DNA of 64,000 nucleotides from an uncultured Solirubrobacterales bacterium (lineage in GTDB: Bacteria; Actinomycetota; Thermoleophilia; Solirubrobacterales; JBBDJG01), in NCBI GenBank assembly GCA_963816975.1, contig CAWFMD010000006.1, positions 1,374,465 to 1,438,464 of the forward strand, in the 5' to 3' direction. A model generated the notes under the pieces. That model did not search any database, was not told the origin of the DNA, and worked only from the letters and a program-made list of their open reading frames with translations. Positions 1-38,242 of this stretch are shown here, in pieces; positions within the stretch are counted from its first letter, which is position 1, and every line of letters starts with the position of its first letter. Both the position numbers and the translations under genes were made by a program.

Positions 1-1865
1 ACCTGGCGGCTCTGGTCGCGGGCTCCAAGTACCGCGGTGAGTTCGAGGAGCGCCTCAAGAAGGTGATGAAGGAGATCACCCAGCGCGGCGACATCATCCT
101 CTTCATCGACGAGCTGCACAACCTCGTCGGTGCGGGCGCGGCCGAGGGCGCGATCGACGCTGCCTCGATCCTGAAGCCGGCGTTGGCGCGTGGCGAGCTG
201 CAGACGATCGGTGCGACCACGCTCGACGAGTACCGCAAGTACCTGGAGCGCGACTCCGCGCTCGAGCGGCGCTTCCAGCAGATCAAGGTGGACCAGCCCT
301 CCACGGAGGAAACCGAGCAGATCCTGAAGGGGTTGCGCGAGCGCTACGAGCAGCACCACCGCGTGAAGATCACCGACGAGGCGCTGCACGCCTCGGCCGA
401 GCTTGCCGACCGCTACATCTCCGATCGCTTCCTGCCCGACAAGGCAATCGACCTGATCGACGAGGCCGCATCGCGGGCCCGCATCAAGGCGATGACCGCG
501 CCGCCCGTGTACCGCGACCTCGAGGACGAGATCGAGCAGACGCGGCGCGACAAGGAGGGCTCGATCGAGGCGCAGGAGTTCGAGAAGGCCGCCGGCCTGC
601 GCGACAAGGAGCGGCGCCTGACGAACAAGAAGCGCGAGCTCGAGGACCAGTGGCAGTCGGGTGAAGGCGGCGAGCGCCCCGAGATCGGCGAGGACGAGAT
701 CGCCGACATCGTCTCGATGTGGACGGGCATTCCGGTGTTCAAGCTGACCGAGGCCGAGTCCAAGAAGCTGATGCGCATGGAGGACGAGCTGCACAAGCGC
801 GTGATCGGGCAGCAGAAGTCGATCGAGGCGGTCTCCAAGGCGATCCGCCGCTCGCGCGCGGGCCTCAAGGACCCGAAGCGCCCGACCGGCTCGTTCATCT
901 TCCTCGGCCCCTCCGGCGTCGGCAAGACCGAGCTGGCCCGCACGCTCGCCGAGTTCCTGTTCGGCGACGAGGACGCGATGGTGCGGATCGACATGTCCGA
1001 GTACATGGAGAAGCACTCCGTGTCGCGTCTGGTCGGCTCCCCGCCCGGCTACATCGGCTACGACGAGGGTGGCCAGCTGACCGAGTCCGTGCGGCGCAAG
1101 CCGTACTGCGTGCTGCTGCTCGACGAGATCGAGAAGGCACACCCGGACGTGTTCAACATCCTGCTCCAGATTCTGGAGGACGGTCGGCTGACCGACGCGC
1201 AGGGCCGCACCGTGGACTTCCGCAACGCGATCGTGATCATGACGTCGAACATCGGCGCCGCCGACATCGCGCGGAACACGCCGCTGGGCTTCTCCGTCTC
1301 CGACGAGACCGGGATGACCTACGACGACATGAAGAACCGGATCACCGGCGAACTGAAGAAGGTCTTCCGGCCCGAGTTCCTCAACCGCCTCGACGAGGTG
1401 ATCGTCTTCCACAAGCTGTCCAAGGACGAGATCAAGCTGATCGTCGAGCTGCTGATGCGCCACCTGCGCAAGTCGATGGCGGAGCGCGAGCTACAGATCG
1501 AGATGTCCGAGGACGCCAAGGACTTCCTGGTCGAGAAGGGCTGGGACCCGGCCATGGGCGCACGGCCGCTGCGTCGCGCGATCCAGCGCTACATCGAGGA
1601 CCCGCTCGCCGACGAGGTGCTGAAGACTCCGCTGACCCCCGGTTCGACGGTGCTCGTGGAGCGCGACGAGGAGTCACGCCAGAAGGCTGCCGGCGGCGAC
1701 GGCGAGGAGGAGTTGAAGATCACCATCCTCGCGCCGGTCGAGAAGCCGCCGGAGGAGCAGCCGGTGCCGGTCGGTGGAGCTGACGAGGGCAACGAGCCCG
1801 ATGGCGACGCCGACGCGTCGGGCGACACGGGCGAGCAGCCCGAGCCGCCGCCCACCGAGAGCTAG
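1..1865 (+). CDS. clpC: ATP-dependent Clp protease ATP-binding subunit ClpC (5'-truncated at window edge; frame starts at nt 3)
   Basis: Frame of track ORF 63..1865 stays open back to nt 3 ([25 protein letters not shown]). Clp/Hsp100 hallmarks: UVR-like middle region ([13 protein letters not shown]), NBD2 Walker A GPSGVGKT, Walker [18 protein letters not shown]. Confidence 0.95.
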
Positions 1866-1899
1866 CCGGTCCGCGCGCTCCGCGGGCCGCGCCCCCGGA

Positions 1900-2694
1900 T
1901 CAGTCCTCGGTCTCGCCCTCGAACAGGGCGAACACGGCACCCTGCGGGTCGCGCGAAACCGCAATCCTGCTGCCCTGCAGGATCGACATCGGGCCGACCA
2001 TCACGGTGCCGCCCAGCTCGCCGATCTGCGTCGCACTGCGGTTCAGGTCAGCCGACGTGAAGTACGGCATCCAGTTGGGTGGGACGCCCATCTGCCGCTC
2101 CTGGTCGCCCAGCGCGCGGATGCCGCCATTCATCCTGGCGCCGTTGCGAATCGTCGTGTAGGGCGTCTCGTCGGTACCGACATCTTCGTAGGACCAGCCG
2201 AAGAGATCGGCATAGAAGCTCTTCGCCCGGTCGACGTCTGCGGTCGCAAGCTCGTTCCACGTGAGGCACCCGGGATCGTTGACGAGCTCCGCGCCGATGC
2301 TGGCGCGCGGCTCCCAGATGCACAGCGTCGCGCCGGTCGGATCCGAGCAGACGGCCATCCGGCCCGAGTCGAGCACGTCGAACGGGTCCGTCATGAGGTT
2401 TCCGCCGAGTTCGTTCACCCGCCCCGCCGTGTCGTCGGCGGACGCCACGGTCACGTAGTTGTTCCAGTGCGGCGGGATGCCGTGCGAGCGCTCCTGCTCC
2501 CGCTGCTCGGCGGCCGCGGCCACCGGCCTGCCGCGCAGCCGGAACATGCGGTACACGGAGCCGTCGCCGATCGGGCTGTCGGAGTGGTCCCAGCCCAGCA
2601 GCCCCTCGTAGAAGGCCGTGGCGCCCTCGCCGTCGCGGGTCGACAGGTCGACCCAGCTGAACGTGCCCGGAGCATGGCTCGTGCGCTCTCCCAT
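1900..2694 (-). CDS. VOC (glyoxalase/bleomycin-resistance/dioxygenase) family protein, two tandem halves
   Basis: Two similar halves (FSWVDLST..FYEGLLGW and LTWNELAT..FYADLFGW). ATG at 2694 (MGERTSHAPGTF) chosen. The 137 upstream codons of the track ORF are Arg/Ala/Pro-rich and run into the neighbouring gene. Confidence 0.8.
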   Translation of the reverse strand: MGERTSHAPGTFSWVDLSTRDGEGATAFYEGLLGWDHSDSPIGDGSVYRMFRLRGRPVAAAAEQREQERSHGIPPHWNNYVTVASADDTAGRVNELGGNLMTDPFDVLDSGRMAVCSDPTGATLCIWEPRASIGAELVNDPGCLTWNELATADVDRAKSFYADLFGWSYEDVGTDETPYTTIRNGARMNGGIRALGDQERQMGVPPNWMPYFTSADLNRSATQIGELGGTVMVGPMSILQGSRIAVSRDPQGAVFALFEGETED

Positions 2695-2735
2695 CGCGCG
2701 GCATGCTAGCCAACGGCCCGGGGACTGCTCGCGGC

Positions 2736-4940
2736 TCAGGAACGCTTGCGGCGGCGCCGCGCTCGGCGCAGGCGACGCGCGACACGCGCCGCCTCGCGCC
2801 GGTTCGCAGCCGGTGCGATCCGCACCGCGAGGCCCACCCGCCGGAACCTGCGCTGGTGCGCCAGCTGCACGGCGAGCGTGGGCCCGGGCCGGGGCGCGGA
2901 GGACTGCGCCTTCGGCCTCAGGATGTGCGCCGTGGCGCGCGGGCGCGCGCCGGTGGGCACGACCACGTACCCGGTCTCTTCGCCGGCGAGGTAGAAGTAC
3001 GCGACGTCGCGCAGGGATACCTGGCGCCGTTTCCGCTGCGGCTCGGCCAGCGTGACCCGGCGGCCGCCGCGCATCACCGCCTCCACGCGCGCGGTCTTGC
3101 CCCACGAGGGAAACATCACGTCAACCGTGTACCGCGCCCGGATGCGGCGCATCACGGCCCAGCGCGTCTCCACATGGCTCGGCGTGAACTTGTGCGTGGT
3201 GTCGATCACGACCTCGCGCGATTCCCGGCGGCCTTTCGCGACGAGGCTCTGGAAGGGCCCGGCGTATGGCCGGGCCGGATACGCCGGTGCAGCCGCCACC
3301 CGCCCCCGCGGTGAGGACAGCAGCGTGATCGGCGGGATCGGCGGCGCCACGGACCGCGGCCGCTGGGACGTGGCGATCTCCTGCTCACCACTGCGCACCA
3401 GCACGCCGAAGCTCGCCCACGGCCGGCCGCCCACGTTGGACACCACCCGCTGGTCGCCGTCATAGAGCCGGCACAGCTCCGTGCCGCCGTAGGGGAAGGC
3501 TCGCTGGTTGACCGGCACCACGGCGGTCGAGTAGCGCGGCGTGGTGATCGACAGGCGCCCGATGTCGGCATCGAAGGAGTACAGCGCAGGCGGCTCCTCG
3601 CCGCCCATCTCGCCCAGACCCAGCGCGATCGCGCGCGCCGCGTTCGCCTGCATGCGGGCGGCGAACAGCTCGCGGATGCTCGGGCCGAGCGGGGCGACGT
3701 TCACGTCGTAGAGGTTGGAGGGAGCGATCCCCTTCGCGTCGGGCGCCTCGCGCGAGAGCCGCTCGTACAGGCCGAGGCCGCGATCGAACATGTACTTCGC
3801 CCATGACCCGATCTCGGACCGGGCGTGAAAGCGCGGCGCCACGGCGATCGCCAGCAGTCCCTGCTGCGCGAGCGCCCAGGTGCGGCCGGCGTGCCAGCGC
3901 TTGAATCCGTAGCCGGTGTCCCAGTTCAGGTAGCCGCCATGGGTCCAGTAGGCGCACACGATGTGCTCGACCCAGGCCCGTAGCAGGCGGTAGTGATCGG
4001 GATGCAGCAGCGGCATGCCCGCGCGCACGGCCTGCTCGTGGTAGAGGATGAAGTGGCAGGTCTCGCTCGCATATTCGGCGCTGTCCACGTTGAACGGATG
4101 AGTCGGGGCCCGGTGGGGCAGATAGTGGAACCTGTAACCCGGCCCGAGGTTGGGCGAACCGCCCGGCGTGAGCGCGCGCGGGATGCCGTCGCAGAAGCGC
4201 GTCACCTGGGCGCGGTAGTCGTTGACGAGCAGCTCCGTGTCGCCCGTGATGCTCGCCGCATGGGCGTACAGCTCGCAGTTCCAGTTGACCTGGTTGAGGC
4301 GCACGTTCGGGAAGCGGAAGAACGGCCCGCGGGCGGCGCGGCTGACGCGGTCCGCGATCATGTCCACCGTCTCCTGCGGGAGTCGCAGCACGTCGCGTGC
4401 TCGCCACGCGTAGACGAGGGCCTCCGCAACCTTCGGATCGATCGACTTGTCCATCGCCGAGTCGCGGGTCCCGAGGCTCTCGACCCAGCCGGGGTTGTGG
4501 AACTGCGAGTCCCCGTCCGGCGACGCATCGCGCTCGCTCCACGGGGGCGACTCGCAGAGCCGCCGCGCGAGCGCGGCGGCGCGGCCGTCGTTGCGCGTCG
4601 GACCGACGTGGCCCGCGAGCGCGGCCACGGCGTGGGTCGTGAGCAACAGGGCGTTGTGGTAGATGCGGCCGACGGTGCTGTTGCCCGAGCCGTAATGCGA
4701 CCTGTCGTCCAGCCACAGGCCGTCGAAGTACGGTGCCAGCCAGTCCGCGAAGCGCCAGTAGTCGGCTGCCTTCAGCGGGGGCCGCGGGAGGCCGGGCGGA
4801 ACGAGGGCGCGATGCTCGGCTGCGTGGAACCCGAACGCGGGAGCCGGGACTGCGCCCAGGCCCCCGAGCGCCGCCGCACCGGCGCCCAATTGCGCGGAGC
4901 GCAGCATGAACTTCCTGCGTGTCAGCGATGGATCTGGCAT
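2736..4940 (-). CDS. Tat-signal secreted protein of unknown function (734 aa)
   Basis: N-terminus MPDPSLTRRKFMLRSAQLGAGAAALGGLGAVPAPAFG has a twin-arginine motif plus hydrophobic core. Coding-like composition throughout, with a very basic C-terminal tail (RRLRRARRRRKRS). Family not recognised with confidence. Confidence 0.75.
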   Translation of the reverse strand: MPDPSLTRRKFMLRSAQLGAGAAALGGLGAVPAPAFGFHAAEHRALVPPGLPRPPLKAADYWRFADWLAPYFDGLWLDDRSHYGSGNSTVGRIYHNALLLTTHAVAALAGHVGPTRNDGRAAALARRLCESPPWSERDASPDGDSQFHNPGWVESLGTRDSAMDKSIDPKVAEALVYAWRARDVLRLPQETVDMIADRVSRAARGPFFRFPNVRLNQVNWNCELYAHAASITGDTELLVNDYRAQVTRFCDGIPRALTPGGSPNLGPGYRFHYLPHRAPTHPFNVDSAEYASETCHFILYHEQAVRAGMPLLHPDHYRLLRAWVEHIVCAYWTHGGYLNWDTGYGFKRWHAGRTWALAQQGLLAIAVAPRFHARSEIGSWAKYMFDRGLGLYERLSREAPDAKGIAPSNLYDVNVAPLGPSIRELFAARMQANAARAIALGLGEMGGEEPPALYSFDADIGRLSITTPRYSTAVVPVNQRAFPYGGTELCRLYDGDQRVVSNVGGRPWASFGVLVRSGEQEIATSQRPRSVAPPIPPITLLSSPRGRVAAAPAYPARPYAGPFQSLVAKGRRESREVVIDTTHKFTPSHVETRWAVMRRIRARYTVDVMFPSWGKTARVEAVMRGGRRVTLAEPQRKRRQVSLRDVAYFYLAGEETGYVVVPTGARPRATAHILRPKAQSSAPRPGPTLAVQLAHQRRFRRVGLAVRIAPAANRREAARVARRLRRARRRRKRS

Positions 4941-5098
4941 CGAAGGCTGTGCAGCGGGCCGCGTGCTCAGGCTTGAACACGCGTGGGCCGGCGGCGGAGC
5001 GGTTTCCGGCCGGGTCTGCCCCGACAGGTTGTCAGGCCCGACGGGCGGCCGCGCCGCCGCGCAATAGCGTCGGGCGCGGCCCTTATGGTGACAAGGTC

Positions 5099-18456: not shown

Positions 18457-19323
18457 GTGGAGGCCGCGCAGTCGACACCGTCGCAGCAACCGGCACACGT
18501 GCTCGTCGTGGCGAACGAGACCGTCGGCGGGCAGAAGCTGATCGACGCGATCGAGCGCCGCGCCGCGCGCGGGCCGATCCGCTGCACCGTGGTGTGCCCG
18601 CAGAACACGCCGAGGCGCGGCTTCGTGGTCTATGACGACACAGCGCGCTCCGCCGCCCGTGTGCGCCTGGAGTTGATCCTGCAGCGCCTGCACGAGATGG
18701 GCATCGAGGCGCGCGGTGAGGTGATGGACCCCGAGCCCTATCTGGCGATCCAGGATGCGCTGCGCGAGTGGGGCGGGGACGAGATCATCATCTCCACCTA
18801 CGTCTATCCGCGCTCGGGACTGCTGCGCCGCGATCTGGTCGAGCGCATCGAGAAGTGGTCGGGCCTGCCCGTCGAGCACGTCGTGGTGGACCTGCGCGAG
18901 GAGCCCGTGCGCAACGTGCTGGTGCTCGCCAGCCAGACAGTCGGGGGGCGCAGCCTGATCGAGACGCTCGAGCGACGGTCGACATCTTCGCCGCACCGCT
19001 TCACGGTGATCCTGCCCCCCACGGGGCCCGACGACGACACCGCCCAGCAACGCCTCGACCACACTTTGGACGCGCTGCGCCGCGCCGGCCTCCGGGTGAC
19101 CGGATACGTGGCCGAGCCGGACCCGTTCAACAGCGTCATGAACGCGCTCGGGCACCACCCGGCTGACGAGATCGTGGTGTCGACGCTCCCGACCGGTGAG
19201 TCGCGCTGGCTGCGCGGTGACCTGATCGACAGGCTGCGCAAGGCGACGGCCCGCCCGGTCGAGCACGTGATTTCCGACCCGGCCGAGCAGGGATCGCAGC
19301 CCGCCGAGGCGGTGGCCGGCTGA
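18457..19323 (+). CDS. Uncharacterised protein made of two tandem copies of a ~125-aa alpha/beta domain, embedded in the cta operon
   Basis: GTG 18457 lies 1 nt after the ctaD stop, and the TGA overlaps the ctaE ATG. Internal duplication: HVLVVANETVGGQKLIDAIERR.. and NVLVLASQTVGGRSLIETLERR... The upstream part of track ORF 18100..19323 overlaps ctaD and is rejected. Confidence 0.75.
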   Translation: MEAAQSTPSQQPAHVLVVANETVGGQKLIDAIERRAARGPIRCTVVCPQNTPRRGFVVYDDTARSAARVRLELILQRLHEMGIEARGEVMDPEPYLAIQDALREWGGDEIIISTYVYPRSGLLRRDLVERIEKWSGLPVEHVVVDLREEPVRNVLVLASQTVGGRSLIETLERRSTSSPHRFTVILPPTGPDDDTAQQRLDHTLDALRRAGLRVTGYVAEPDPFNSVMNALGHHPADEIVVSTLPTGESRWLRGDLIDRLRKATARPVEHVISDPAEQGSQPAEAVAG

Positions 19324-20054: not shown

Positions 20055-20639
20055 GTGATCTGGAGCACCGGCGCGGCGCTGGCCGTGGCCGGCGGTCTTG
20101 CGATCGGCGTCGTCGTCGGCCTGTTCATGCTGAAGCGGGACGAGCCGCGCGAGAAGATGCTCCTCGGCCGCCGCCTCGAGGACCGCCCTGACGGCCGCTA
20201 TCGGATCCTGGTGGTCGCCAACGAGACGCTGTCCGGCAGCGCCCTGCGCGCCGAGATCTCGCGCCGCGGGCACGGCGGGGAGGCCCACCTGAAGGTCGTG
20301 TGCCCGGCCCTCAACAGCAAGATCAAGCACTGGACCAACGAGGAGGACGCGGCCCGCGCGGCGGCCCGCGCGCGCCTCGAGACCTTGCTGGCGGGACTGC
20401 GCGGGGAGGGATTCGACGCCGACGGGGACATCGGCGACGACGACCCCGTGCAGGCCATGGAGGACGAGCTGCGGCGGTTCCCCGCCGACGAGGTGATCAT
20501 CTCCACCCACCCGCCGGGCCGTTCGAACTGGCTCGAGCGTGACGTCGTGGAACGGGCGCGGCAGACCTTCGCGATCGACGTCACCCACGTGGTGGTCGAC
20601 CTCGACCGCGAGGGCGTGGGTCCGGCGCCAGCTACTTGA
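20055..20639 (+). CDS. Membrane-anchored paralogue (third copy) of the cta-embedded domain
   Basis: Hydrophobic N-terminus, then RILVVANETLSGSALRAEISRR..DEVIISTHPPGRSNWLERDVVERA..VTHVVVD. The frame is open back to 19938, but no canonical start lies upstream of GTG 20055. Confidence 0.7.
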   Translation: MIWSTGAALAVAGGLAIGVVVGLFMLKRDEPREKMLLGRRLEDRPDGRYRILVVANETLSGSALRAEISRRGHGGEAHLKVVCPALNSKIKHWTNEEDAARAAARARLETLLAGLRGEGFDADGDIGDDDPVQAMEDELRRFPADEVIISTHPPGRSNWLERDVVERARQTFAIDVTHVVVDLDREGVGPAPAT

Positions 20640-21318: not shown

Positions 21319-21396
21319 CGGCGGTCGGGCATTATCCGCATTTCGGCGGTCGTGTGCCAAACGGGGGGCGCGTACGGCGCCCGATCGGCTACGCGC

Positions 21397-22815
21397 TCAG
21401 CAGCCCGACTGGGGGTCCGACGCGTTCGTCGGGGCACTCGGGCATTCCTCCCAGGTGCTGCGGGTGAAGCCCGACGCCGACCCGGACCCACCGCTGCCGG
21501 GGGGGTTGCTGCTGATGCCCGAGACGTCCCCCTCGACGAAGTTGAGGCCGTTGGTGGCGGTCACGCTCTGGGCGTAGATCGCTCCGTACCAGTTCGTCTT
21601 GTTCGTGAATTTGACGGGCGCATTCGGGGCGAAGAGTGCGGCCCCGAAGCCGGACTGGTTGCTGACGTTGATCTGGGCCGCACCGTAGTAGATGATCTGC
21701 AGCGCGGTCGGGTCGGCGGGCGGGCTGAGCGCCGGGTTGTAGTTCAAGTAGGAGGTATTGGTGATCGTGAACTTGCTGTCGCTGGAGCAGCTCGAGCCCG
21801 GGCGCGAGGATGAGTCGATGAACAACTGGACCTTTGCTCCGTTCAACAACACGATGCTTGTCTTGTTGCTGAACTTCACTTCGCAGAAGTTGAAGATCCA
21901 GTAGCCGCCCGAGCCCGCGCGCGGGTTCTGGCCGGTCAGCGTGAGGGTGGCGTCCCCGCTGTCCTCGAGGCTGCGCGTGCCGCTCGCCGGGTTGTAGTCG
22001 AAGCCGGCGGCGCTGCCGAAGACCGCCGCGTTGTCGTTGTTCGCGGCCAGCGCGGTGTTCGGATTGCCGATCAGCCCGTCGAAGCTGGGCGTCGGCCAGG
22101 GCGTCGGGTTGGGCGGCGCGACGTTGGGGGTGCCGCTGCACGAGTTCGAGATCGTCCCGCTCGGCCCCGGCGCGAAATCGATGCTCGAGGCCGAGCCCGA
22201 GGTCTTGCAGGACTTGAGCTTGAACTCGCCGTTCGTCGCGACCCGGCCCACGATGTCTCCGAAGCCGTTCTGGTTGATGTCGATCGAGCCCAGCCCCGAG
22301 AGTCCCAATCTCGGAAACAGCGGGGTGCTCGCTGCCGCGCTCGCGACCAGGGCCTCGAGGCGGCGCACCACGTTGCCGACCGTCCCGATCGAGGTGATGC
22401 ACCGCTGGATCGGCGTCGCGCCTCCGCTCTGCGCGGTCGTTCCGCCGCAGGCGGTCCCGGCGTCGAGCACGGGGGTCACGTAGTAGGAGTAGGTCGCGCC
22501 GTTGCCCGCGCCTGCGGTGGCCGGCGGGCACTCGCCGGGCGCCGCACCCGACGTGCCCGTCGCGACCGGCTGGTCCGTCAGGCACATGCCGGCTGCGGGG
22601 TCGACCTTGTTGAGGCGGTACCGCGCGATCTGCATGCCGGCCTCCGCCGCGCCGAGCGCGCGCTTCGCGCTGGTGTCCCGGCTCGCGGTGTTGTTGGCCT
22701 GGATCGACGCGCTGAGCACGACCGCGACCAGCAGGAGAACGACCGCCAGCACGGATACCGCGAGCGCCACCGCGACGCCGCTCTCGTCCCGGATCAGGCG
22801 GCGCGACACGCTCAC
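21397..22815 (-). CDS. PilX-N-like large pseudopilin/pilus-associated protein
   Basis: GTG 22815 forms a GTGA overlap with the upstream stop. RDESGVAVALAVSVLAVVLLLVAVVLSASIQ...AKRALGAAEAGMQIA matches the PilX N-terminal pattern. Gly/Thr/Ser/Asn-rich beta-type remainder. Confidence 0.7.
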   Translation of the reverse strand: MSVSRRLIRDESGVAVALAVSVLAVVLLLVAVVLSASIQANNTASRDTSAKRALGAAEAGMQIARYRLNKVDPAAGMCLTDQPVATGTSGAAPGECPPATAGAGNGATYSYYVTPVLDAGTACGGTTAQSGGATPIQRCITSIGTVGNVVRRLEALVASAAASTPLFPRLGLSGLGSIDINQNGFGDIVGRVATNGEFKLKSCKTSGSASSIDFAPGPSGTISNSCSGTPNVAPPNPTPWPTPSFDGLIGNPNTALAANNDNAAVFGSAAGFDYNPASGTRSLEDSGDATLTLTGQNPRAGSGGYWIFNFCEVKFSNKTSIVLLNGAKVQLFIDSSSRPGSSCSSDSKFTITNTSYLNYNPALSPPADPTALQIIYYGAAQINVSNQSGFGAALFAPNAPVKFTNKTNWYGAIYAQSVTATNGLNFVEGDVSGISSNPPGSGGSGSASGFTRSTWEECPSAPTNASDPQSGC

Positions 22816-23477
22816 GAGCCCTTCCTCGCGTTCGGGTCCGTTGCCACGGCGGAGAACAGCAGCGGCTTGCGGGCGCTGCCCGTGACCGTCACCGCCACCG
22901 TGATTCGCTTGTAGTCGGAGGTGATCGCCTGGTCCGCGGAGCTGGAGCACGATGTGCACGGGTCGTCGATCGAGGTGATGAACCTGTAGAGGCTCCCGGT
23001 CAGTCCCCCGGCGCTCCACGAGATCGGGCCGGGGGCCGTGGTCCCGCTCGCGTTGATCACCAGCGGGGCGACCGTCGCCGATGAGGCGGGGGCACTCTGG
23101 TCCCACTGGTAGCACGAGCTTGCGGAGGCGGGACAGCCCGAGGCGCCACTCGCGTAGACGTAGTAGCGGGGATCGCCCGGGTTCGTGCTCGCGGCGGGAG
23201 CCGCGTTGGTCGCGATCGATGCGTAGCCTCCCGCGAGCAGCCGTTCGAGGTCCTGCTGCGCGACGTGCGCGGCGGCCTGCTTGTTCTCCGAGCTGACGGT
23301 CAGCCTGCGGGAGCTGTCGAGCGCCATCGCCGCTCCCAGGAGGCCGACGGACAGCATCATGATCGCCACCAGCAGCTCGATCATCGTGAAGCCGCGCTCG
23401 TGGAGCAGCCGGCGGCGGGCCCGTCCAGCCAGGGGCGGCCCCGCGGTGGCGAGCGCTTTCAGCGCGTGCGACGTCAC
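22812..23477 (-). CDS. Type IV pilin-like protein with prepilin cleavage/methylation motif
   Basis: ERG/FTMIELLVAIMMLSVGLLG (G-1, E+5, hydrophobic helix). Track coordinates used. Confidence 0.8.
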   Translation of the reverse strand: MTSHALKALATAGPPLAGRARRRLLHERGFTMIELLVAIMMLSVGLLGAAMALDSSRRLTVSSENKQAAAHVAQQDLERLLAGGYASIATNAAPAASTNPGDPRYYVYASGASGCPASASSCYQWDQSAPASSATVAPLVINASGTTAPGPISWSAGGLTGSLYRFITSIDDPCTSCSSSADQAITSDYKRITVAVTVTGSARKPLLFSAVATDPNARKGS

Positions 23478-24088
23478 TGGGTTCCGAGATTCCTGGGGTA
23501 GAAGCCATCGTCCAGGGTGATGTTTCGGCTGTAGCCGGTCGAGCCTCCAGCGTTGGCGGGCACGACGACGGTGGCCTGGACGAACGTCGGATTAATCGCG
23601 TCCGGCGTGAAGCTGAAGACGCCCGGGTTGGACGGCGCCGCCGCGGTCCCGTTCAGGACCCGGTCCACGATCACAGGCGCGCTTCCGGTACTCGGCGCGG
23701 CCGTGAGCGTCGTGCTGGCAGCCCGCACGCACTGGCGATAGCTGACCCCCGAAGGCTGCACGTCGCACTTGTAGACGACGCGCGTCGGCACTCCCGCGAT
23801 CGCGATCTTGACGTCCATCGTGCTCGCGCTCGCCGCATAGATGGTGCTGGCCTGGCGCAGCTCGCGGGTCATGCGATGGAGGCCGACCTGGACCGCGCGG
23901 GCGGCTTGGCCGGCTGCGATCTCGCGCCTGGCGACCTTGTCCGTGACGTTGTAGAAGCCGAACAGCGACAGCATGACCACGACGAACCCCGACATCACTG
24001 CCAGCAGCTCGATCAGCGAGAACCCGGCCTCGCCGCCGAGCAGGCGCGCAGCTCCACGTGGAGCCTTCCGTGGCATCCAGTTGGACAT
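23474..24088 (-). CDS. Type IV pilin-like protein with prepilin cleavage/methylation motif
   Basis: GEAG/FSLIELLAVMSGFVVVMLSLFG. ATG 24088 (MSNWMPRKAPRG) chosen, because the track ORF start 24205 would run into the tRNA gene. Confidence 0.8.
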   Translation of the reverse strand: MSNWMPRKAPRGAARLLGGEAGFSLIELLAVMSGFVVVMLSLFGFYNVTDKVARREIAAGQAARAVQVGLHRMTRELRQASTIYAASASTMDVKIAIAGVPTRVVYKCDVQPSGVSYRQCVRAASTTLTAAPSTGSAPVIVDRVLNGTAAAPSNPGVFSFTPDAINPTFVQATVVVPANAGGSTGYSRNITLDDGFYPRNLGTQ

Positions 24089-24169
24089 TCGACCTATGTG
24101 TGATCGGCTACTTCGGCCCAGGGGTTGAGCGGAAACGCGGTTTTCCGTCGCCTCCCTCCTGACGCGCAG

Positions 24170-24242
24170 AGCCGGAGAGGGGACTCGAACCCCTGGCCCC
24201 GTCATTACAAGTGACGTGCTCTACCAACTGAGCTACTCCGGC
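24170..24242 (-). tRNA. tRNA-Thr (anticodon UGU)
   Basis: Minus strand reads GCCGGAGTAGCTCAGTTGGTAGAGCACGTCACTTGTAATGACGGGGCCAGGGGTTCGAGTCCCCTCTCCGGCT. Acceptor stem GCCGGAG/CTCCGGC, D arm GCTC/GAGC, anticodon stem CGTCA/TGACG with loop CTTGTAA, T arm AGGGG-TTCGAGT-CCCCT. 73 nt, CCA not encoded. Confidence 0.9.
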
Positions 24243-24667
24243 AGCTCGTAGTCCCGCGCCCACCGCACACGCTTGTCCTGGCCGTTTGCGGTGGGATCGA
24301 TTCGAAGGGTACCGCGGGACCGGGTGGTCTCATCGATCGGGATCGCGTAGATCCCCTTGGTCTCGGGACAGTGCACCATGAAGAGCTCCACCTGGTCCCG
24401 GTAGTCGCGTATCAACGTCTGCCTCGTGTTCACCCGGATGCTGCGCACGTTGAAGTCGATGCAGCCGTTGCGCAGGCGGCCGGTCTTGCACTGGACCCGG
24501 AGGAACGAGCCTTCGATGTCGAGCACCAGGTCGTAGCGCTGGTTCTGGCCGAATGGCAGCAGGACCCGTTAGCCGCGTCTCACGAGCTCGGCCAGGATCG
24601 TGGCCTCGGTCCGGCTGCCGACGTCCACCGGGTGGCGACTGGGTGTGGGCGCGGGAAGGGTTCTCAT
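24233..24667 (-). pseudogene. Small PD-(D/E)XK-type endonuclease gene interrupted by an in-frame TAA
   Basis: The frame reads MRTLPAPTPSRHPVDVGSRTEATILAELVRRG-TAA-RVLLPFGQNQRYDLVLDIEGSFLRVQCKTGR..., with nuclease core D..(D/E)xK as YDLVLD / VQCK. The stop codon is at 24569-24571. The 3' end overlaps the first 10 nt of tRNA-Thr. Confidence 0.6.
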
Positions 24668-24817
24668 CGGGCTTTCCCAGGCTATGGTGAGAGGCCTGAC
24701 GAGTCAGGACGCGGGTGTAGCTGGATCGTGCCGAGTTTCGCGCCGCGTGTGCTCGTCGCGGAGCGCGGCGCAGGGGCGCGCCCGCACGCGGCGAATCTCC
24801 TGTAACTCCGCATTCCG

Positions 24818-26497
24818 ATGCGGGGTATTCACCCTGTCGAGATGGACCTCGAGCGCGCCCACCAGATCGCCCGCGAACGCGGCCCCGTGATGCCCGTCTA
24901 TTGGGTGGTCCGCGCGATCCTCCAGCCGTTCTTCCACCTGTACTTCCGACTCGGACGCATCGGCCGGGAGCACGTCCCCGCGCAGGGCCCCGTGCTGCTC
25001 GCGTCCAACCACCGCAGCTTCGCGGACCCATTCCTGATCGGCTGCTGCCTCGGGCGTCCGCTGCGCTTCGTCGCGAAGCTCGAGTTGTTCGACAAGCGCT
25101 GGAAGGCCCGGCTCCTGCTGGCCCTCGGCGCCTTCCCCATCCGCCGCGGGGAATCCGACGAGGCCGCGATGGAGACGGCCCGGGTGATCCTCGAGCAGGG
25201 CGGTGCGGTCGGCATCTTCCCGGAGGGCACCCGCGTGCGGCCCGGTCCGCTGGGCGAGCCGAAGCGCGGCGTCGGCCGGCTGGCGCTCGAGACCGGCGCT
25301 CCCATCGTGCCCGTCGCGATCGTCGGCACGGAGGACATCCGCAAGGGCTGGCGCATCCGCCCGCGCCGCGTGACCGTCCGCTGCGGCCGCGCCCTGCGCT
25401 TCCCGCGCCCACTCGATCGCGAGCCCCGTCAGGCGGCCGCGCAGGAGATCTCCAACCGCGTGTGGTCGTGCATCTCGTTGCAGTGGGAATGGCTCGGGGG
25501 CCTGCAGCCGATCCGCCAGGCTGTCGTGGTCGGCGCCGGCAGCTGGGGCACTGCGGTGGCCACGCTGCTGGCGCGCTCAGGCACCACGGTGCAGCTCGGC
25601 TGCCGCACCGCGGAGCAGGCTCGCGACCTCGGCCTGAACCGCACGAATGCCGCGTATCTGCCGGGAGTCCAGCTGCCCGACAACGTGCGGGTCGTGATGG
25701 TCGACGATCTCCGCTTCGACGACGTGAGCCTGGTCTGCATGGCGGTTCCCTCCCGCTCGCTCGACGACGCGCTCGGCGCCATCCGGGCGCGCATCCCCGA
25801 CGGCCTCGGCGTGCTGGTGCTCTCGAAGGGCCTGCTTGCGCCGCACGGCACGCTGCCGAGCCAGCTGGTCGCCGCGCGCACCGGCGAACGGCCGACCGCA
25901 TGCCTCGGCGGGCCGGCTCATGCCGGCGAAGCGGTTCGCCGCGGCGCGCACGTGACCGTCGCATCTGCCGACCCGACGTTCGCGGCGCTGATCGCGAGCA
26001 GCCTGCGGCGCGCGGGACTTGCGTGCGACACGAGCCGCGACCTCGTCGGCATCGAGCTCGCAGGTGCCGCGAAGAACGCGGCCGCCCTGGCCGCGGGTGC
26101 GGCGATGGCGGATGGGCCGAACGCGGCCGGGGCGGCCGCGGGACGCGTCTACGAGGAGTGCCACGCGCTCGCCCACAAGCGCGGCGCGGCGGCCGCGAGC
26201 TTCACCGGTACGGCCGGCATCGGCGACCTGGTGGCCACCGTGCTCGCGGCACACAGCCGCAACCGGCGCGCCGGCGAGCTGCTTGCGCAGGGAGTCGAGC
26301 CCGGGGAGATCCCGCAGATCCTGGGCCAGGTTCCGGAGTCCCTGCATGCGGTACCCGTGCTCGCGCGGGCGATGAGCGAGGCGGGCGTCCGATCCACGGC
26401 GACCGAGCAGCTGGCGGCGCTCGCGGAGGGACGCATCGGCCCGGACCAGTGGGTCGAATTGGCGCGCCGCTCGCGCGCAGGGTCACGAGCCGCCTGA
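24818..26497 (+). CDS. plsC/gpsA: Fusion protein: 1-acyl-sn-glycerol-3-phosphate acyltransferase (PlsC) domain + NAD(P)H-dependent glycerol-3-phosphate dehydrogenase (GpsA) domain
   Basis: N-half: LLASNHRSFADPF (HX4D) and GIFPEGTR. C-half: VVVGAGSWGTAVATLLA Rossmann motif, NAAYLPG, GAAKNAAALAAG. One continuous frame with no stop between the halves. The start could be 24818 or 24842. Confidence 0.85.
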   Translation: MRGIHPVEMDLERAHQIARERGPVMPVYWVVRAILQPFFHLYFRLGRIGREHVPAQGPVLLASNHRSFADPFLIGCCLGRPLRFVAKLELFDKRWKARLLLALGAFPIRRGESDEAAMETARVILEQGGAVGIFPEGTRVRPGPLGEPKRGVGRLALETGAPIVPVAIVGTEDIRKGWRIRPRRVTVRCGRALRFPRPLDREPRQAAAQEISNRVWSCISLQWEWLGGLQPIRQAVVVGAGSWGTAVATLLARSGTTVQLGCRTAEQARDLGLNRTNAAYLPGVQLPDNVRVVMVDDLRFDDVSLVCMAVPSRSLDDALGAIRARIPDGLGVLVLSKGLLAPHGTLPSQLVAARTGERPTACLGGPAHAGEAVRRGAHVTVASADPTFAALIASSLRRAGLACDTSRDLVGIELAGAAKNAAALAAGAAMADGPNAAGAAAGRVYEECHALAHKRGAAAASFTGTAGIGDLVATVLAAHSRNRRAGELLAQGVEPGEIPQILGQVPESLHAVPVLARAMSEAGVRSTATEQLAALAEGRIGPDQWVELARRSRAGSRAA

Positions 26498-33970: not shown

Positions 33971-35478
33971 CGCGCGCGCTTGGCGGGCTTGGCCCGCGCG
34001 AGGTAGCGCTGGCCGGCGCGCACGGTGACGGTCTTGTGTTTGGCGATGTCGCGCACCTTGACCACGCCGCTGGTGACGCGCGTGAGGGTGCCGGCGCACC
34101 TGTCCTCGACCAGCCAGCGGGTGCCGCGCACGGTGGCCGCGCTGCGGCGTCCACGGGTCTTGTAGCGGCCCGTCGCGTTGCCCCACAGGCGGCGGCGGGG
34201 GCGGCGCTTGGCGCTCGCCTGCACGCCCCGGCCCGCGCGGCAGCGGGGCATCTGGCCGGCGAGCCTCAGCTCCACCAGTCCGTTCGCATTTTTGCGTTGC
34301 TGCCCGATGAACCGGCCGCCGTGGAAGACCCCCGACTGGATGCCGCCGGCAGGCGTGGCCGACGCGAGGCTGATGCGGCCCCGGCGCACATCGATCAGGG
34401 AGCCGACCGGCACCTGTGTGGCATCGGTCAGGGGCTTGAGCCGGCCCAGCCGCTTTCCGTGGCGGCGGGCCACCTTCACGACTCCCGAGACGCGCGCGAC
34501 GTTGAGCTCGCGGTAGATGTCGGGCGCGGCAAGCTGCGGTTGCGGCAACCCGGGCAGACCGGGAGAGGTGGTCTGGGGCGCCCGAGTGACGCCGACGGGG
34601 TTGTAGAACAGGCCGCCCGCGGACACCCCGGCCTGGGCGCCGGTGACGGTGTCGACACTGATCAGTCCACCGGATCCGCCGAACGCATCGGGGTCTGCCA
34701 CGAGCGCCGTGCCGGCCTCGGCGAACACACCCGCCGGGTCCTTGAGCGGGCTGCCCGCCGCCACCGGGGCGATGCTGCCGTTGGCGAGGCTGAGCGCCCA
34801 CAGGGACTCTTTCGTGGTGACGAGTACCCGGCCGTCCGGACTCACCGCGATGCCGCGCAGGGCGGAGCCGAACTGCGCTCCGGAGGCGACCTGCGACTGC
34901 ACCCCGGTCGTGGGGTCGATCCTGATCAACCCACCCTTCACGCTGTCCACCTTGGAATCGGCCACATAGATGACGCCGCCGGGCCCGACCGCGACGCCCA
35001 CGGGATCCACCAGCAGGCCATCGGCGCCGATCACCGTCTGGGCGCCGGTGGCCGGCTCGACGCGCACGACCTTGCCGCCCTCGTCGGAAACCAGCAGCGC
35101 GCCGTCGGCGGCGATTGCAACGCCCGTCGGCCTGTAGAAGTACCCCAGCTGAGCCACGACGGTCTGGGTCCCGGTCGTCGCGTCGATCGCCACAATCGCT
35201 CCCTTGCCGAGCGCGTGGCTGTCACTCACGAACAGCGTGCCGTCCGCGCGCGCGACGATCCCGGACGGCTTCTTCAGGTGCCCCTCCTTGGAAAGCAGTG
35301 TCTGGCCGCCCCCCGAGGTGTCGACCCGCACGACGCTGGCGCGCCCTTCGTCGACCACCAGCGCATCCGTGGAGGCGGCGAGCGCGGCGCCGGGCGTGGC
35401 CAGGGCGGCGGCGACCGAGAGCGCGATCGCGACCAGGGTGGCCCGCGGCGAGGGGCCGGGGTGGTGCAGGCTCAGCAC
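33967..35478 (-). CDS. Secreted NHL/beta-propeller repeat protein with C-terminal FecR-like domain
   Basis: GTG 35478, signal peptide (ATLVAIALSVAAALATPGAALA). Repeated units of the type P.G[IV]A....G.L[FL]V[SA]D (PSGIVARADGTLFVSD, PTGVAIAADGALLVSD, PVGVAVGPGGVIYVAD). Basic beta-rich C-terminus (VSGVVKV..VPVGSLIDV..). The upstream part of the track ORF overlaps the next gene and is rejected. Confidence 0.7.
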   Translation of the reverse strand: MLSLHHPGPSPRATLVAIALSVAAALATPGAALAASTDALVVDEGRASVVRVDTSGGGQTLLSKEGHLKKPSGIVARADGTLFVSDSHALGKGAIVAIDATTGTQTVVAQLGYFYRPTGVAIAADGALLVSDEGGKVVRVEPATGAQTVIGADGLLVDPVGVAVGPGGVIYVADSKVDSVKGGLIRIDPTTGVQSQVASGAQFGSALRGIAVSPDGRVLVTTKESLWALSLANGSIAPVAAGSPLKDPAGVFAEAGTALVADPDAFGGSGGLISVDTVTGAQAGVSAGGLFYNPVGVTRAPQTTSPGLPGLPQPQLAAPDIYRELNVARVSGVVKVARRHGKRLGRLKPLTDATQVPVGSLIDVRRGRISLASATPAGGIQSGVFHGGRFIGQQRKNANGLVELRLAGQMPRCRAGRGVQASAKRRPRRRLWGNATGRYKTRGRRSAATVRGTRWLVEDRCAGTLTRVTSGVVKVRDIAKHKTVTVRAGQRYLARAKPAKRAR

Positions 35479-35531
35479 CCTGGTGCTATCGGCCGGCGCG
35501 CATGCGGACTTGAGGCGCGGACGGGCCACGC

Positions 35532-37349
35532 CTAGCGACGCGGTGCCGTGGCGAGGGCCTTTGCCGGGCGCCGGCGAAGATCCCGCAGGGAGGTTCGCTC
35601 GCGCTCCATCCGCGGCGCCAGCGCGAGGAATCTCTCCACGAGCCGGGGGTCGAACGCCGTGCCGCTGCGCGCACGGATCTCGGCGAGCGCGGCGTCGAGG
35701 CTCCATGCGGGCTTGTAGGCGCGCTCCGACATGAGCGCGTCGAATACGTCGCAGATCGAGCAGATCCTTCCCGCCATCGGGATCTCCTCTCCGCGCAGTC
35801 CCGCCGGGTAGCCGCTGCCGTCCCACCGCTCGTGGTGCGTGCGGGCGATCACCTCGGCAACCTGGATCAGACGCGATCCTGAGCCCGCGAGAATCTCGCT
35901 GCCGATCTTCGTGTGGCTCCTCATGATCTCGCGCTCCTCGGCCGTGAACTCGCCCGGCTTGCGCAGGATCGCGTCGGGGATCCCGATCTTGCCGAGGTCG
36001 TGCAGGGCGCTCGCGTCCCGGAGGAGCTCGGCGTCGTCGACGCTCCAGCCGGCGTCGACTGCGAGTTGATAACAGAGCCGGCCGATTCGCTCGATGTGCT
36101 CACCGGTTTCGCGGTCGCGCGACTCCGCCGCCTGTCCGAGCCGGTACACGACCTCCATCTGGGTCTCGCGCAGCTCCGTGGTGCGCTTGCGCACCTCTCG
36201 CTCGAGCTCGTCCTTGCGATGCACGACGCGGCGGCGCTCGCTGCTCTCCGCAAGGTATGCGGCGGTGACCGCGGTCACGGTTCCGGTCATCAGTGCCGCG
36301 ATCGGATAGGTGAAGACCACGACCCACCCGGCGTTGAAGAGCTCCTGCGCGACGATCGCGTAGCCGATCGCCACCGAGGGAACGAGCACGACGAGCAGCC
36401 GCGCCCGCATGTAGGCGATTCCGAGCGTGGGTGCGAGCCCAAGTGCCAGGATCATGAGCAGGTCGATCCAGTCCGGCACGCTGCGCAGCGGGACACCGTG
36501 CATGGCGGTCCAGATCGCGTTCGCCTGGATCTCCGGTCCCGACATCGGATTCTCGTCTGACATCGGTGTCGGGTGGATGTCCTGCAGGGTCGACGCCGAC
36601 GCGCCCACCACGACCACCTTGTCGCGTAGCGCCGCGAAGGGGACGTCGCCTTCGACCAGGTCGGCGAAGGAGAAGGTCGGCACCGTTGCCGGGGGGCCGC
36701 GGTAGTCGATCCATGCGCCGCCGTGGTCGAACAGATGCCGCGGCGGCGGGTGTCCCGTCGCCTGGCCGGCGGTGGCCACGCCGAAGGTCTCGAGCCCGGC
36801 CTCCTCGTAGGCGATCTTGCGGACCACGCCCCCGCGGTCGACGGGGACGTTGCTCGCGGCGGCCCGGGCCCGCGCCCGCGCGACGTTGGCGTCGCCACCG
36901 AGCACGTTCGTGCGGCCCCGCTGGTCGACCTCCGTGGTGGCGAGCACCACATTGCCCGCCCGCCTGATCGCACGGTAGAGGGCAAGATCTTCGGCCGGCT
37001 TCGTGGGCTCCGTGAACTGGACGTCGTACGCGATCTGCCTGACGCCGGCCGCACGGAGCCGATCGATCGCGGTGGCGTGCAGCGAGCGTGGGAAGGGCCA
37101 CTGGATCTCCAGCCTGGAGAAGGTCACCTCGTCGATCGCGATCACGACTACGTCGTCGGGGGGATCCGCCTCGCGCAGTGTGAAGCGCATGTCGAGGCTG
37201 TCACCCTCCAGGGGTCCCCAGGCATCCGTCACGTACGCCAGGCAACTGAGGGCGACGGCGATCGTGGCCGCGAGCACCGTACCAACCCGACGGCCGGCCG
37301 CGCGGGTCGCGCGAAGGTCGCGCGCCCGACCCTTCGATCTCCTGCGCAT
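35532..37349 (-). CDS. CHASE2 sensor domain / HD-GYP domain signalling protein (putative c-di-GMP phosphodiesterase)
   Basis: Periplasmic CHASE2 pattern (VVVIAIDEVTF..WPFPRSLHA..YDVQF), three C-proximal TM helices, then HD-GYP (HIERIG, ALHDLGKIGIPD, HHERWDGSGYP). ATG 37349 chosen; GTG 37367 is possible. Confidence 0.85.
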   Translation of the reverse strand: MRRRSKGRARDLRATRAAGRRVGTVLAATIAVALSCLAYVTDAWGPLEGDSLDMRFTLREADPPDDVVVIAIDEVTFSRLEIQWPFPRSLHATAIDRLRAAGVRQIAYDVQFTEPTKPAEDLALYRAIRRAGNVVLATTEVDQRGRTNVLGGDANVARARARAAASNVPVDRGGVVRKIAYEEAGLETFGVATAGQATGHPPPRHLFDHGGAWIDYRGPPATVPTFSFADLVEGDVPFAALRDKVVVVGASASTLQDIHPTPMSDENPMSGPEIQANAIWTAMHGVPLRSVPDWIDLLMILALGLAPTLGIAYMRARLLVVLVPSVAIGYAIVAQELFNAGWVVVFTYPIAALMTGTVTAVTAAYLAESSERRRVVHRKDELEREVRKRTTELRETQMEVVYRLGQAAESRDRETGEHIERIGRLCYQLAVDAGWSVDDAELLRDASALHDLGKIGIPDAILRKPGEFTAEEREIMRSHTKIGSEILAGSGSRLIQVAEVIARTHHERWDGSGYPAGLRGEEIPMAGRICSICDVFDALMSERAYKPAWSLDAALAEIRARSGTAFDPRLVERFLALAPRMERERTSLRDLRRRPAKALATAPRR

Positions 37350-37474
37350 GTGAGTCCGTGAGAGCACGAGCTGACGAGTGCCCTGGGGGCGCCCGACAGT
37401 CGCATCGGCATCGGCTCGGCGGCGCTTGAGAACGATCGGCCCGCCCGCTCGCGCCAGTGCGGCGCGAGCTTCGG

Positions 37475-38242
37475 TCAGTCCGAGCCGGGGAGCCGACCTC
37501 CCACGAACTGGGTGAGGCCGGCCAGGCGCTGGCGGACGTCAATGAACCCGAGCGCGCGCAACGCGTCAACGAGTTCCTGCTGCTCGAACATGCGGATCCC
37601 CGCGGGCGCGGCGACTGCCCGCTCGAGCGCGCGCAACGCTCCCGTGCGCCCGTGGCTCGACGTGAACAGCGCGATGCGCCCGCCCGGGGCCAGCACGCGG
37701 CGCATCTCGTCGAGGGCCAGGTAGGGGTCGGGGAACAGGTTCAAGGCGGCGAAGCAGCACGCGGCGTCGAAGGACGCCGCTCGAAACGGCAGCGCGGCCG
37801 CGTCCGCGAACGCGAAGCACAGGTTGTCGATACCGGCGGCATGCGTCTCGCGCACCGCGCGTTCCAGCATCGGGCGGGAGGCGTCGACTCCCACCACGAG
37901 ACCGCCACCGCCTACGGCGTGGGCGAAGTCCCGCGAGAAGTTCCCGGGGCCGCAGGCGACGTCGAGCACGCCGTCACCCGGGCCGAGGCCCATCAGGAGC
38001 CTGGCGATCCGCTTCTCGTCCGCCATGCCCGGGCCGCCGATGCCCTTTGCCATCCGGCCCAGCGCGGGGCGCCACCAGCGCTCGTAGACGCGGGTCACCG
38101 GACCCGCCTGCATCAGGCTGCCGACCAGACCCGGCTGCTCGATGTCCCGGCCCAGTACCTCCAGATAGCCGTCGTGCAGGACCGCGTCGCGGTGATCGGG
38201 GCGCAGCAGCGGCCGCACCCGCTCGCAGGGGGAGCCGCTCAC
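37475..38242 (-). CDS. Class I SAM-dependent methyltransferase
   Basis: SAM motif I VLDVACGPGNFS and post-I VVGVDAS. GTG 38242 forms a GTGA overlap with the upstream stop. Confidence 0.85.
   Translation of the reverse strand: MSGSPCERVRPLLRPDHRDAVLHDGYLEVLGRDIEQPGLVGSLMQAGPVTRVYERWWRPALGRMAKGIGGPGMADEKRIARLLMGLGPGDGVLDVACGPGNFSRDFAHAVGGGGLVVGVDASRPMLERAVRETHAAGIDNLCFAFADAAALPFRAASFDAACCFAALNLFPDPYLALDEMRRVLAPGGRIALFTSSHGRTGALRALERAVAAPAGIRMFEQQELVDALRALGFIDVRQRLAGLTQFVGGRLPGSD

Follow-up and report, generated by a model that had tools for sequence, protein, structure and literature searches.

What does a set of three pilin-like genes do in a stretch of DNA that encodes no machine for building a pilus, and how did it come to lie beside a tRNA gene? 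The question is raised by 64 kb (64,000 nt) of contig CAWFMD010000006.1 from an uncultured Solirubrobacterales bacterium (assembly GCA_963816975.1, positions 1,374,465 to 1,438,464), a stretch referred to here as the window, in which three overlapping genes, A, B and C, form a cassette next to tRNA-Thr. An earlier note on this DNA had regarded them as a minor-pilin-only module, of a kind that usually primes or tips a filament specified elsewhere. The pilus linkage of the homologues, the ComZ-like model of gene C and the lack of machinery in the window support that reading, and we consider that the cassette probably supplies an accessory set of core minor pilins, for priming and tip, to a monoderm type IVa-like pilus whose genes lie elsewhere. 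In the window lineage it forms a 2.8 kb insertion that is missing from close relatives. The genes concerned are as follows.

24088..23474, minus strand: gene A, minor pilin, 204 aa, first gene of the triad
23477..22812, minus strand: gene B, PilV/GspI-like minor pilin, 221 aa
22815..21397, minus strand: gene C, PilX/ComZ-type large minor pilin, 472 aa
24242..24169, minus strand: tRNA-Thr(UGU), called by ARAGORN; Rfam tRNA, 72.9 bits

The three genes and their products

The 4-nt overlaps that had been reported between these co-directional genes were read at both junctions, GTGA standing at 23477-23474 and at 22815-22812, so that the stop codon of one gene shares bases with the GTG start of the next. 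The open reading frames (ORFs) are intact, and every family-invariant residue and the translational-coupling overlaps are retained; proteins identical to A, B and C in sequence and length were found in a public collection, all on one contig. The distance from the 3' end of tRNA-Thr to the ATG of gene A was 80-81 nt, and the earlier figure of 82 nt is corrected here. The orphan status of the cassette holds for 64 kb: PilB, PilT, PilC, PilD, PilM, PilN and PilO of locus L002 (labels of this form denote the loci compared) gave no tblastn match in the window, and Pfam scans of about 50 window ORFs returned housekeeping genes only, with no pilus-machinery families and no com genes. Rfam found the tRNA only over the cassette region, with no riboswitch or other RNA upstream, and a structured RNA in the spacer was rejected, as the hairpins were no more stable than those of shuffled sequences.

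Genes A and B carry the textbook prepilin sites that had been attributed to two of the proteins (AG/FSLIE in A and RG/FTMIE in B, the slash marking the cleavage site). Gene A matched PROSITE PS00409 exactly (AGFSLIELLAVMSGFVVVMLS), with the cleavage context AG/FSLIELLAVMSGFVVVMLS, a 22-residue leader, Cys at 108 and 120 and a mature isoelectric point (pI) of 9.6. Gene B has a 29-residue leader before the site RG/FTMIELLVAIMM, and it scored above the cut-offs of both Pfam N_methyl (27.1 bits, cut-off 21.2) and TIGR02532 (26.1 bits, cut-off 16.3). Both proteins thus bear the class III signal of type IV pilin-like proteins, cleavage itself being predicted, and a relaxed class III motif found none beyond these two in the six-frame translation of the window. 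The match of gene B to TIGR02523 PilV (E 5.5e-13, 49.6 bits, residues 28-122) is close to the cut-off of 52.2, yet under it, so that gene B is PilV-like and not a certified equivalog. Gene A gave only weak N-terminal matches, to HpsC, its best NCBIfam match (E 2e-4, 20.9 bits, cut-off 200), to Verru_Chthon cassette protein C (E 1.3e-3) and to GspJ (E 0.12); by these matches it is a pilin of uncertain subtype, tentatively labelled GspJ/PilW-like. A PDB profile search with A and B recovered N-terminal pilin helices only, and the kinship between the two proteins is limited to the alpha1 helix (hhalign, 56 columns). Cysteines number two in gene A, four in gene B and ten in gene C, even counts that fit the expectation for extracytoplasmic, exported, disulfide-bonded proteins.

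Gene C begins with MSVSRRLIRDESG/VAVALAVSVLAVV. Its signal, ESG/VAVALAV, has Gly at -1, Val at +1 and a very hydrophobic helix, without Phe at +1 and without Glu at +5, and we take it to be of the GspK/PilX type; the E-x-G of this signal is at least 90% conserved across the family. The label PilX-N-like, which the earlier note had applied, stands for the family and not for the protein: gene C itself had no PilX_N match, and PilX_N (PF14341) was found in 9 of 21 homologues (best E 9.2e-5). DUF7305 (PF23981) was present in 20 of the 21 (best E 1.4e-12), and gene C itself reached 26.3 bits against a cut-off of 27. The reported richness in small and polar residues was reproduced, with Ser at 12.1%, Thr at 8.0%, Asn at 7.0% and Gly at 11.2%, compared with 4.9, 4.7, 2.0 and 9.3% in 47 other window genes, an enrichment of 2.5-3.5-fold for Ser and Asn, Thr and Gly also being raised. 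The mature protein is acidic, with a pI of 5.3 and a low content of Lys and Arg, and its C-terminal pair Cys458...Cys472 lies in a family-conserved E-C...DPESGC. The family is large: when 1.84 billion representatives were searched with a profile, 551 representative clusters matched at E<=1e-30 and 2,362 at E<=1e-10; of the best-scoring 150 listed, almost all were full length, about 420-490 aa. No paper mentioning DUF7305 was found in a full-text literature search.

Structural modelling of the 472-aa protein, which had been proposed as a check, pointed to a tip pilin. The AlphaFold2 model, built on an alignment of 21 homologues, had a predicted local distance difference test score (pLDDT) of 79.4 and consisted of a helix (7-71), a sheet (77-159), short strands (172-428) and a final strand (450-458). 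In a Foldseek search of the PDB the first match was Thermus thermophilus ComZ, 6QVI (E 1.6e-6, probability 1.0), followed by a block of DUF3494 ice-binding beta-helix (solenoid) proteins. The modelled fold fits the ComZ-type architecture, that is, a pilin helix and sheet with an inserted beta-solenoid.

Related triads and the insertion at tRNA-Thr

Whether homologues of the cassette are linked to pili at all was a point on which its interpretation could fail, and it did not, since the A-B-C genes occur in the same order within complete type IV pilus loci of Solirubrobacterales. Relatives of gene C that are 45-49% identical were found in such loci in metagenome-assembled genomes of this order. 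The gene order there is aroE, pilB (MshEN+T2SSE), pilT, pilC, pilin, A-like, B-like, two or three DUF7305 paralogues, an immunoglobulin-like (Ig-like) protein of 625 aa, pilD (Peptidase_A24), pilM, pilN, pilO and aroC, and these loci contain no secretin. The triad lies between the major pilin gene and pilD in L002, L004/L005 and L007, and its order was kept in every locus recovered by tblastn. Gene A is 37-43% identical to the first triad gene of L002, L005, L007, L008, L009 and L011, and gene B, again at 37-43%, to the second triad gene in seven loci. A metagenome scan yielded four short loci only. The role of such a cassette in a Gram-positive-type envelope, called unclear in the earlier note, is therefore less obscure than it seemed, as relatives encode full secretin-less loci of the type described for monoderms.

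The Ig-like (Big_13) protein, of roughly 625 aa, stood between the DUF7305 genes and pilD in every complete Solirubrobacterales locus seen, and the window cassette has no such gene. As a marker for the main locus it failed: matches were swamped by Ig-repeat proteins, and none came from the source contig. Its positions are:

L002, 12893-14776: Ig-like (Big_13) protein
L004, 11454-13352: Ig-like (Big_13) protein
L007, 11462-13336: Ig-like (Big_13) protein

Other triads stand alone. The closest homologue of gene C (P0002, 51%) belongs to a stand-alone triad of 199, 208 and 462 aa with 4-nt overlaps, lying between opposite-strand genes. Stand-alone triads are followed by dnaE in L008 and by a CBM96/phosphoesterase gene in L010, and in L009 the triad is preceded by a gene for a SpoIIM-like membrane protein and followed by a second cassette, with no pilus machinery visible. 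In a neighbour-joining tree, gene C of the window and P0002 formed a clade sister to all in-locus copies. The soil contig L009 carries A-B-C and then, in tandem, a second A-like gene with an N_methyl match (1459-3994 and 4321-5034).

A comparison with close relatives, which had also been proposed, showed that they keep the flanks and are without the cassette beside tRNA-Thr. The relatives were chosen through the closest homologues of the PlsC-GpsA protein, which were 89% (L017/L018), 87% (L013, GCA_038203635.1) and 79% (L014/L015) identical. They share the synteny ctaC-ctaD-x-ctaE-x-[cytochrome c-cupredoxin]-tRNA-Thr-...-plsC/gpsA-sigma factor, and no pilin genes were found at the syntenic position in L017/L018, L013 or L014/L015. 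With the flanks conserved but the cassette missing in three close relatives, the 2.8 kb is a lineage-specific insertion, delimited as follows.

21352..24167, no strand: inserted segment, 2.8 kb (blastn of L017, L018, L013 and L014; gene tables; boundary alignments)
21331..21360, minus strand: promoter-like site TTGGCA-18-GATAAT of the cytochrome c-cupredoxin gene (promoter scan; columns invariant in the relatives' alignment)

Nucleotide homology to L017 ends at window position 21351 and restarts at 24168, leaving 2,816 nt in the window against 128 unaligned nt in L017. The segment consists of the three genes flanked by spacers of 80 nt and about 36-45 nt; one boundary is the 3' end of tRNA-Thr, and the other falls immediately upstream of the cytochrome c gene's conserved promoter-like site. 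At this site the relatives have an unrelated spacer, which in L013 separates the cytochrome c gene from the tRNA by 149 nt. The window, L017 and L013 are about equidistant with L014 as outgroup, so that a single gain in the window lineage is more parsimonious than several losses.

The additional DNA begins at the tRNA 3' end when compared with the relatives, as in tRNA-targeted islands. No integrase gene was found around the cassette, and no repeat of the tRNA 3' end or att-like repeat at the far border. The values of GC content at third codon positions (GC3) were 0.87, 0.91 and 0.94 for A, B and C, showing no anomaly against 0.91 +/- 0.03 for 47 other genes. Foreign composition was rejected, as an apparent GC3 dip to 0.82-0.83 was an artefact of over-extended ORFs and the true gene boundaries match the host. 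A plasmid or phage origin was likewise dropped, tblastn of gene C against plasmid and phage records giving no match.

Adjacency to a tRNA as a trait of the family was also rejected, because the other stand-alone cassettes (L008-L011) have no tRNA adjoining. The adjacency reflects a variable site and is no property of the module: the neighbourhood of tRNA-Thr is a hot spot of gene gain and loss, in which PDDEXK_5 and PD40-repeat genes vary too. The former is represented in the window by a pseudogene.

24233..24667, minus strand: PDDEXK_5 endonuclease pseudogene (PF11645, E 1.8e-21; in-frame stop RRG*RVLL)

The pseudogene runs at its 3' end into tRNA-Thr(UGU), sharing the first 10 nt, and its stop codon is the TAG of the tRNA at positions 8-10. 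An intact 144-aa PDDEXK_5 gene, with the same overlap, is found in L016 (9348-9846), L017 (5992-6490) and L018. L014 (9738-9911) keeps the PDDEXK_5 3' end only, joined to a different, oppositely oriented tRNA-Thr(UGU) sequence, and L013 has the tRNA alone; the distribution suggests that the endonuclease gene travels with, or targets, tRNA-Thr genes. Between PDDEXK_5 and plsC-gpsA, a gene for a 502-aa PD40/Tricorn-like beta-propeller protein is present in L017 (6679-8187) and L018 (2742-4250), and the corresponding site of the window is 71 nt only (24693-24763).

The triad as a probable accessory pilus module

Considering the above results, we propose a plausible model for the function of the cassette. 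A, B and C would enter the membrane through their N-terminal helices and be cut after the conserved Gly by a prepilin peptidase encoded elsewhere. Gene A, the PilV-like gene B and gene C would then pack by their helices into a GspI-J-K-like complex on a PilC/PilMNO platform, prime polymerisation of the major pilin and afterwards cap the fibre. The solenoid of gene C would be too bulky for any position except the filament tip, where it may be exposed as a tip 'plug' or adhesin. To judge from the relatives, the machinery would be encoded elsewhere in this genome. The triad appears to have been gained at the tRNA-Thr 3' flank in the window lineage only, its nearest relative (P0002) also standing alone, and is most likely an extra, alternative tip set for that machine.

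Several observations weigh against this model. A pilus ATPase, platform protein, peptidase and major pilin were looked for across the 64-kb window and not found, and their presence elsewhere in the genome is presumed from the relatives. The promoter scan gave no promoter-like site upstream of gene A, and the cassette contains no FimU/GspH-like fourth pilin. The assignment of gene A as GspJ/PilW rests on weak N-terminal matches, with no match past the N-terminal helix, and a single-sequence AlphaFold2 model of it had a pLDDT of 46.8 and was discarded as unusable. For gene C, the global template modelling score (TM-score) against ComZ was low, about 0.3, and no sequence-level tie to ComZ or GspK was found; a profile of 21 family members had no match among PDB sequences at E up to 10.

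A different reading is that the cassette is the only core minor-pilin set of the genome, relocated from the main pilus locus and hence essential for piliation. Gram-positive pilin genes can indeed lie away from the biosynthesis operon (PMC3244431), and just one DUF7305 protein of the source contig was among the homologues found, but the DUF7305 search was insensitive, and two known paralogues on the L002 contig escaped it as well. Moreover, relatives with known loci hold A-B-C in the main locus, the window copy is an insertion missing in genus-level relatives, and it branches outside the in-locus clade, for which an added set is the better fit. We therefore regard a sole, relocated set as unlikely.

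We think it quite improbable that the triad specialises the pilus for DNA uptake, with gene C as a ComZ-like DNA receptor at the tip aided by a PilA2-like gene B. ComZ, which binds DNA and PilA2 and is required for transformation and not for piliation (PMC6561018), is the best structural match of gene C, and gene B immediately precedes gene C and overlaps it. However, gene C lacks sequence homology to ComZ, its acidity and scarcity of Lys and Arg lend DNA binding no support, the solenoid is equally like ice-binding or adhesin-type domains, no com genes lie in the window, and cyanobacterial solenoid PilX proteins serve motility and competence pili alike (bioRxiv 10.64898/2026.02.12.705559).

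That the cassette no longer functions, as a relic or passenger in a genome without a type IV pilus machine, is very improbable, for although no machinery lies in the 64 kb and the PDDEXK_5 pseudogene next door shows that the spot tolerates decay, the three ORFs are intact with both 4-nt overlaps, the family-invariant residues and the paired Cys all kept, their codon composition is like that of the host, and members of the large family are uniformly full length.

Within the preferred reading of an accessory module, one extension is rather unlikely and is offered as speculation, namely that A-B-C is a portable 'pilus tip cartridge', a minimal unit of three genes that travels within or between Thermoleophilia genomes while bringing no mobility gene, has settled here in a tRNA-Thr hot spot, and fits out a type IV pilus machine already present with another solenoid tip. 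Bearing on it are the distinct stand-alone clade (the window and P0002), the tandem cassettes in L009, neighbours that differ at every stand-alone locus and a presence that varies among genus-level relatives. If it were true, the binding of the pilus, whether to a surface, a polysaccharide or DNA, would be changed.

The triad has parallels in several known systems. Thermus thermophilus ComZ is pseudopilin-like with an inserted beta-solenoid, has been argued to fit at the tip only, and binds the neighbouring GspI-like PilA2 as well as DNA (PMC6561018). Common to both, by prediction in the case of gene C, is a large pilin in which a hydrophobic helix at the N-terminus and a pseudopilin-like sheet are combined with an inserted beta-solenoid, and in both the gene for the solenoid pilin adjoins one for a GspI/PilV-like minor pilin. 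The differences, besides the undetectable sequence homology, the low global TM-score and the acidity of gene C already described, are that the present organism is a monoderm actinomycete, that the gene order is another and that the cassette is separate from the major pilin gene.

The GspI-GspJ-GspK proteins of type II secretion and the PilV-PilW-PilX proteins of type IVa pili are likewise three co-transcribed pilin-like proteins, with one large member without Glu at +5 (GspK/PilX type), one PilV/GspI-like member and a proposed role in priming and capping. In contrast to these, gene A is not demonstrably GspJ/PilW, the cassette is without FimU/GspH and PilY1, gene C would have a solenoid in place of the GspK alpha-domain, and the related loci are without an outer membrane or a secretin. 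Myxococcus xanthus is a precedent for such sets being multiple, as its three alternative minor-pilin/PilY1 clusters work with a single machine and a single major pilin (PMC7541494). [quoted passage not shown]

Cyanobacterial PilX contains an ice-binding-like beta-solenoid and has been proposed as a tip plug replacing PilY1 (bioRxiv 10.64898/2026.02.12.705559). The likeness to the cyanobacterial PilX/Hps proteins includes a PilX-type pilin interrupted by an ice-binding-like solenoid (in gene C by the model), organisms without PilY1, and HpsC as the best NCBIfam match of gene A. The phylum and envelope differ, however, the similarity is only N-terminal, and no hps-type polysaccharide genes lie nearby.

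Verru_Chthon cassettes (TIGR02596-TIGR02600) are multi-copy, stand-alone cassettes of prepilin-type proteins. The present cassette is a stand-alone cassette of prepilin-type proteins as well, and gene A weakly matches cassette protein C; its 18 bits against a cut-off of 256.5 mean that gene A is no member.

Solenoid-bearing PilX/ComZ-type pilins, core minor-pilin priming complexes and multiple dispersed minor-pilin clusters are already described, and what we report for the most part carries these principles into a new lineage; it is of note above all because close relatives are without the cassette at this spot. According to a 2019 review (PMC6916266), experimental work on type IV pili of Actinobacteria has dealt with the Tad/Flp type, and the type IVa-like system of Solirubrobacterales is therefore under-explored, though not of a new kind. 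Soil members of this order carry full secretin-less type IVa-like loci, with a ComZ/PilX-like solenoid protein among the core minor pilins; the family of this protein, DUF7305, is already in Pfam, large and uncharacterised. The window contributes a case in which this triad of minor pilins is a separable module, acquired at a tRNA flank. If it is true that alternative tip sets retarget one machine, this would be a simple route to diversify adhesion or DNA uptake in abundant soil bacteria.

Other features of the region

The window is an ordinary actinobacterial core region, with clpC, radA, disA, carD, ispD, cysS and ctaC-ctaD-ctaE, the cytochrome c-cupredoxin and plsC-gpsA fusions, genes for extracytoplasmic function (ECF) sigma factors, lgt, lysA, hom, thrC and gltB. 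The plsC-gpsA gene (24818-26497, plus strand) encodes a PlsC acyltransferase fused to GpsA glycerol-3-phosphate dehydrogenase and is a useful marker for relatives; all 120 clusters listed in its homologue search had both the acyltransferase and the glycerol-3-phosphate dehydrogenase domains. Two proteins without a Pfam match (about 18500-19323 and 20055-20639, both on the plus strand) share a repeated 'LVVANETxxG' motif; their genes lie within the ctaC-ctaD-ctaE cytochrome oxidase operon and directly behind it, and are syntenic in L013, L014 and L017. Between clpC and radA, a 734-aa ORF (2736-4940, minus strand) is gene-like in its GC3 of 0.91 and has no Pfam match. A second lineage-specific insertion occupies 33974-37484, the 3.5 kb being missing at the syntenic position in L014 and L016; it holds, at 35532-37367, a gene of the CHASE2-HD-GYP type (HD_5), and also an unannotated ORF of 573 codons.

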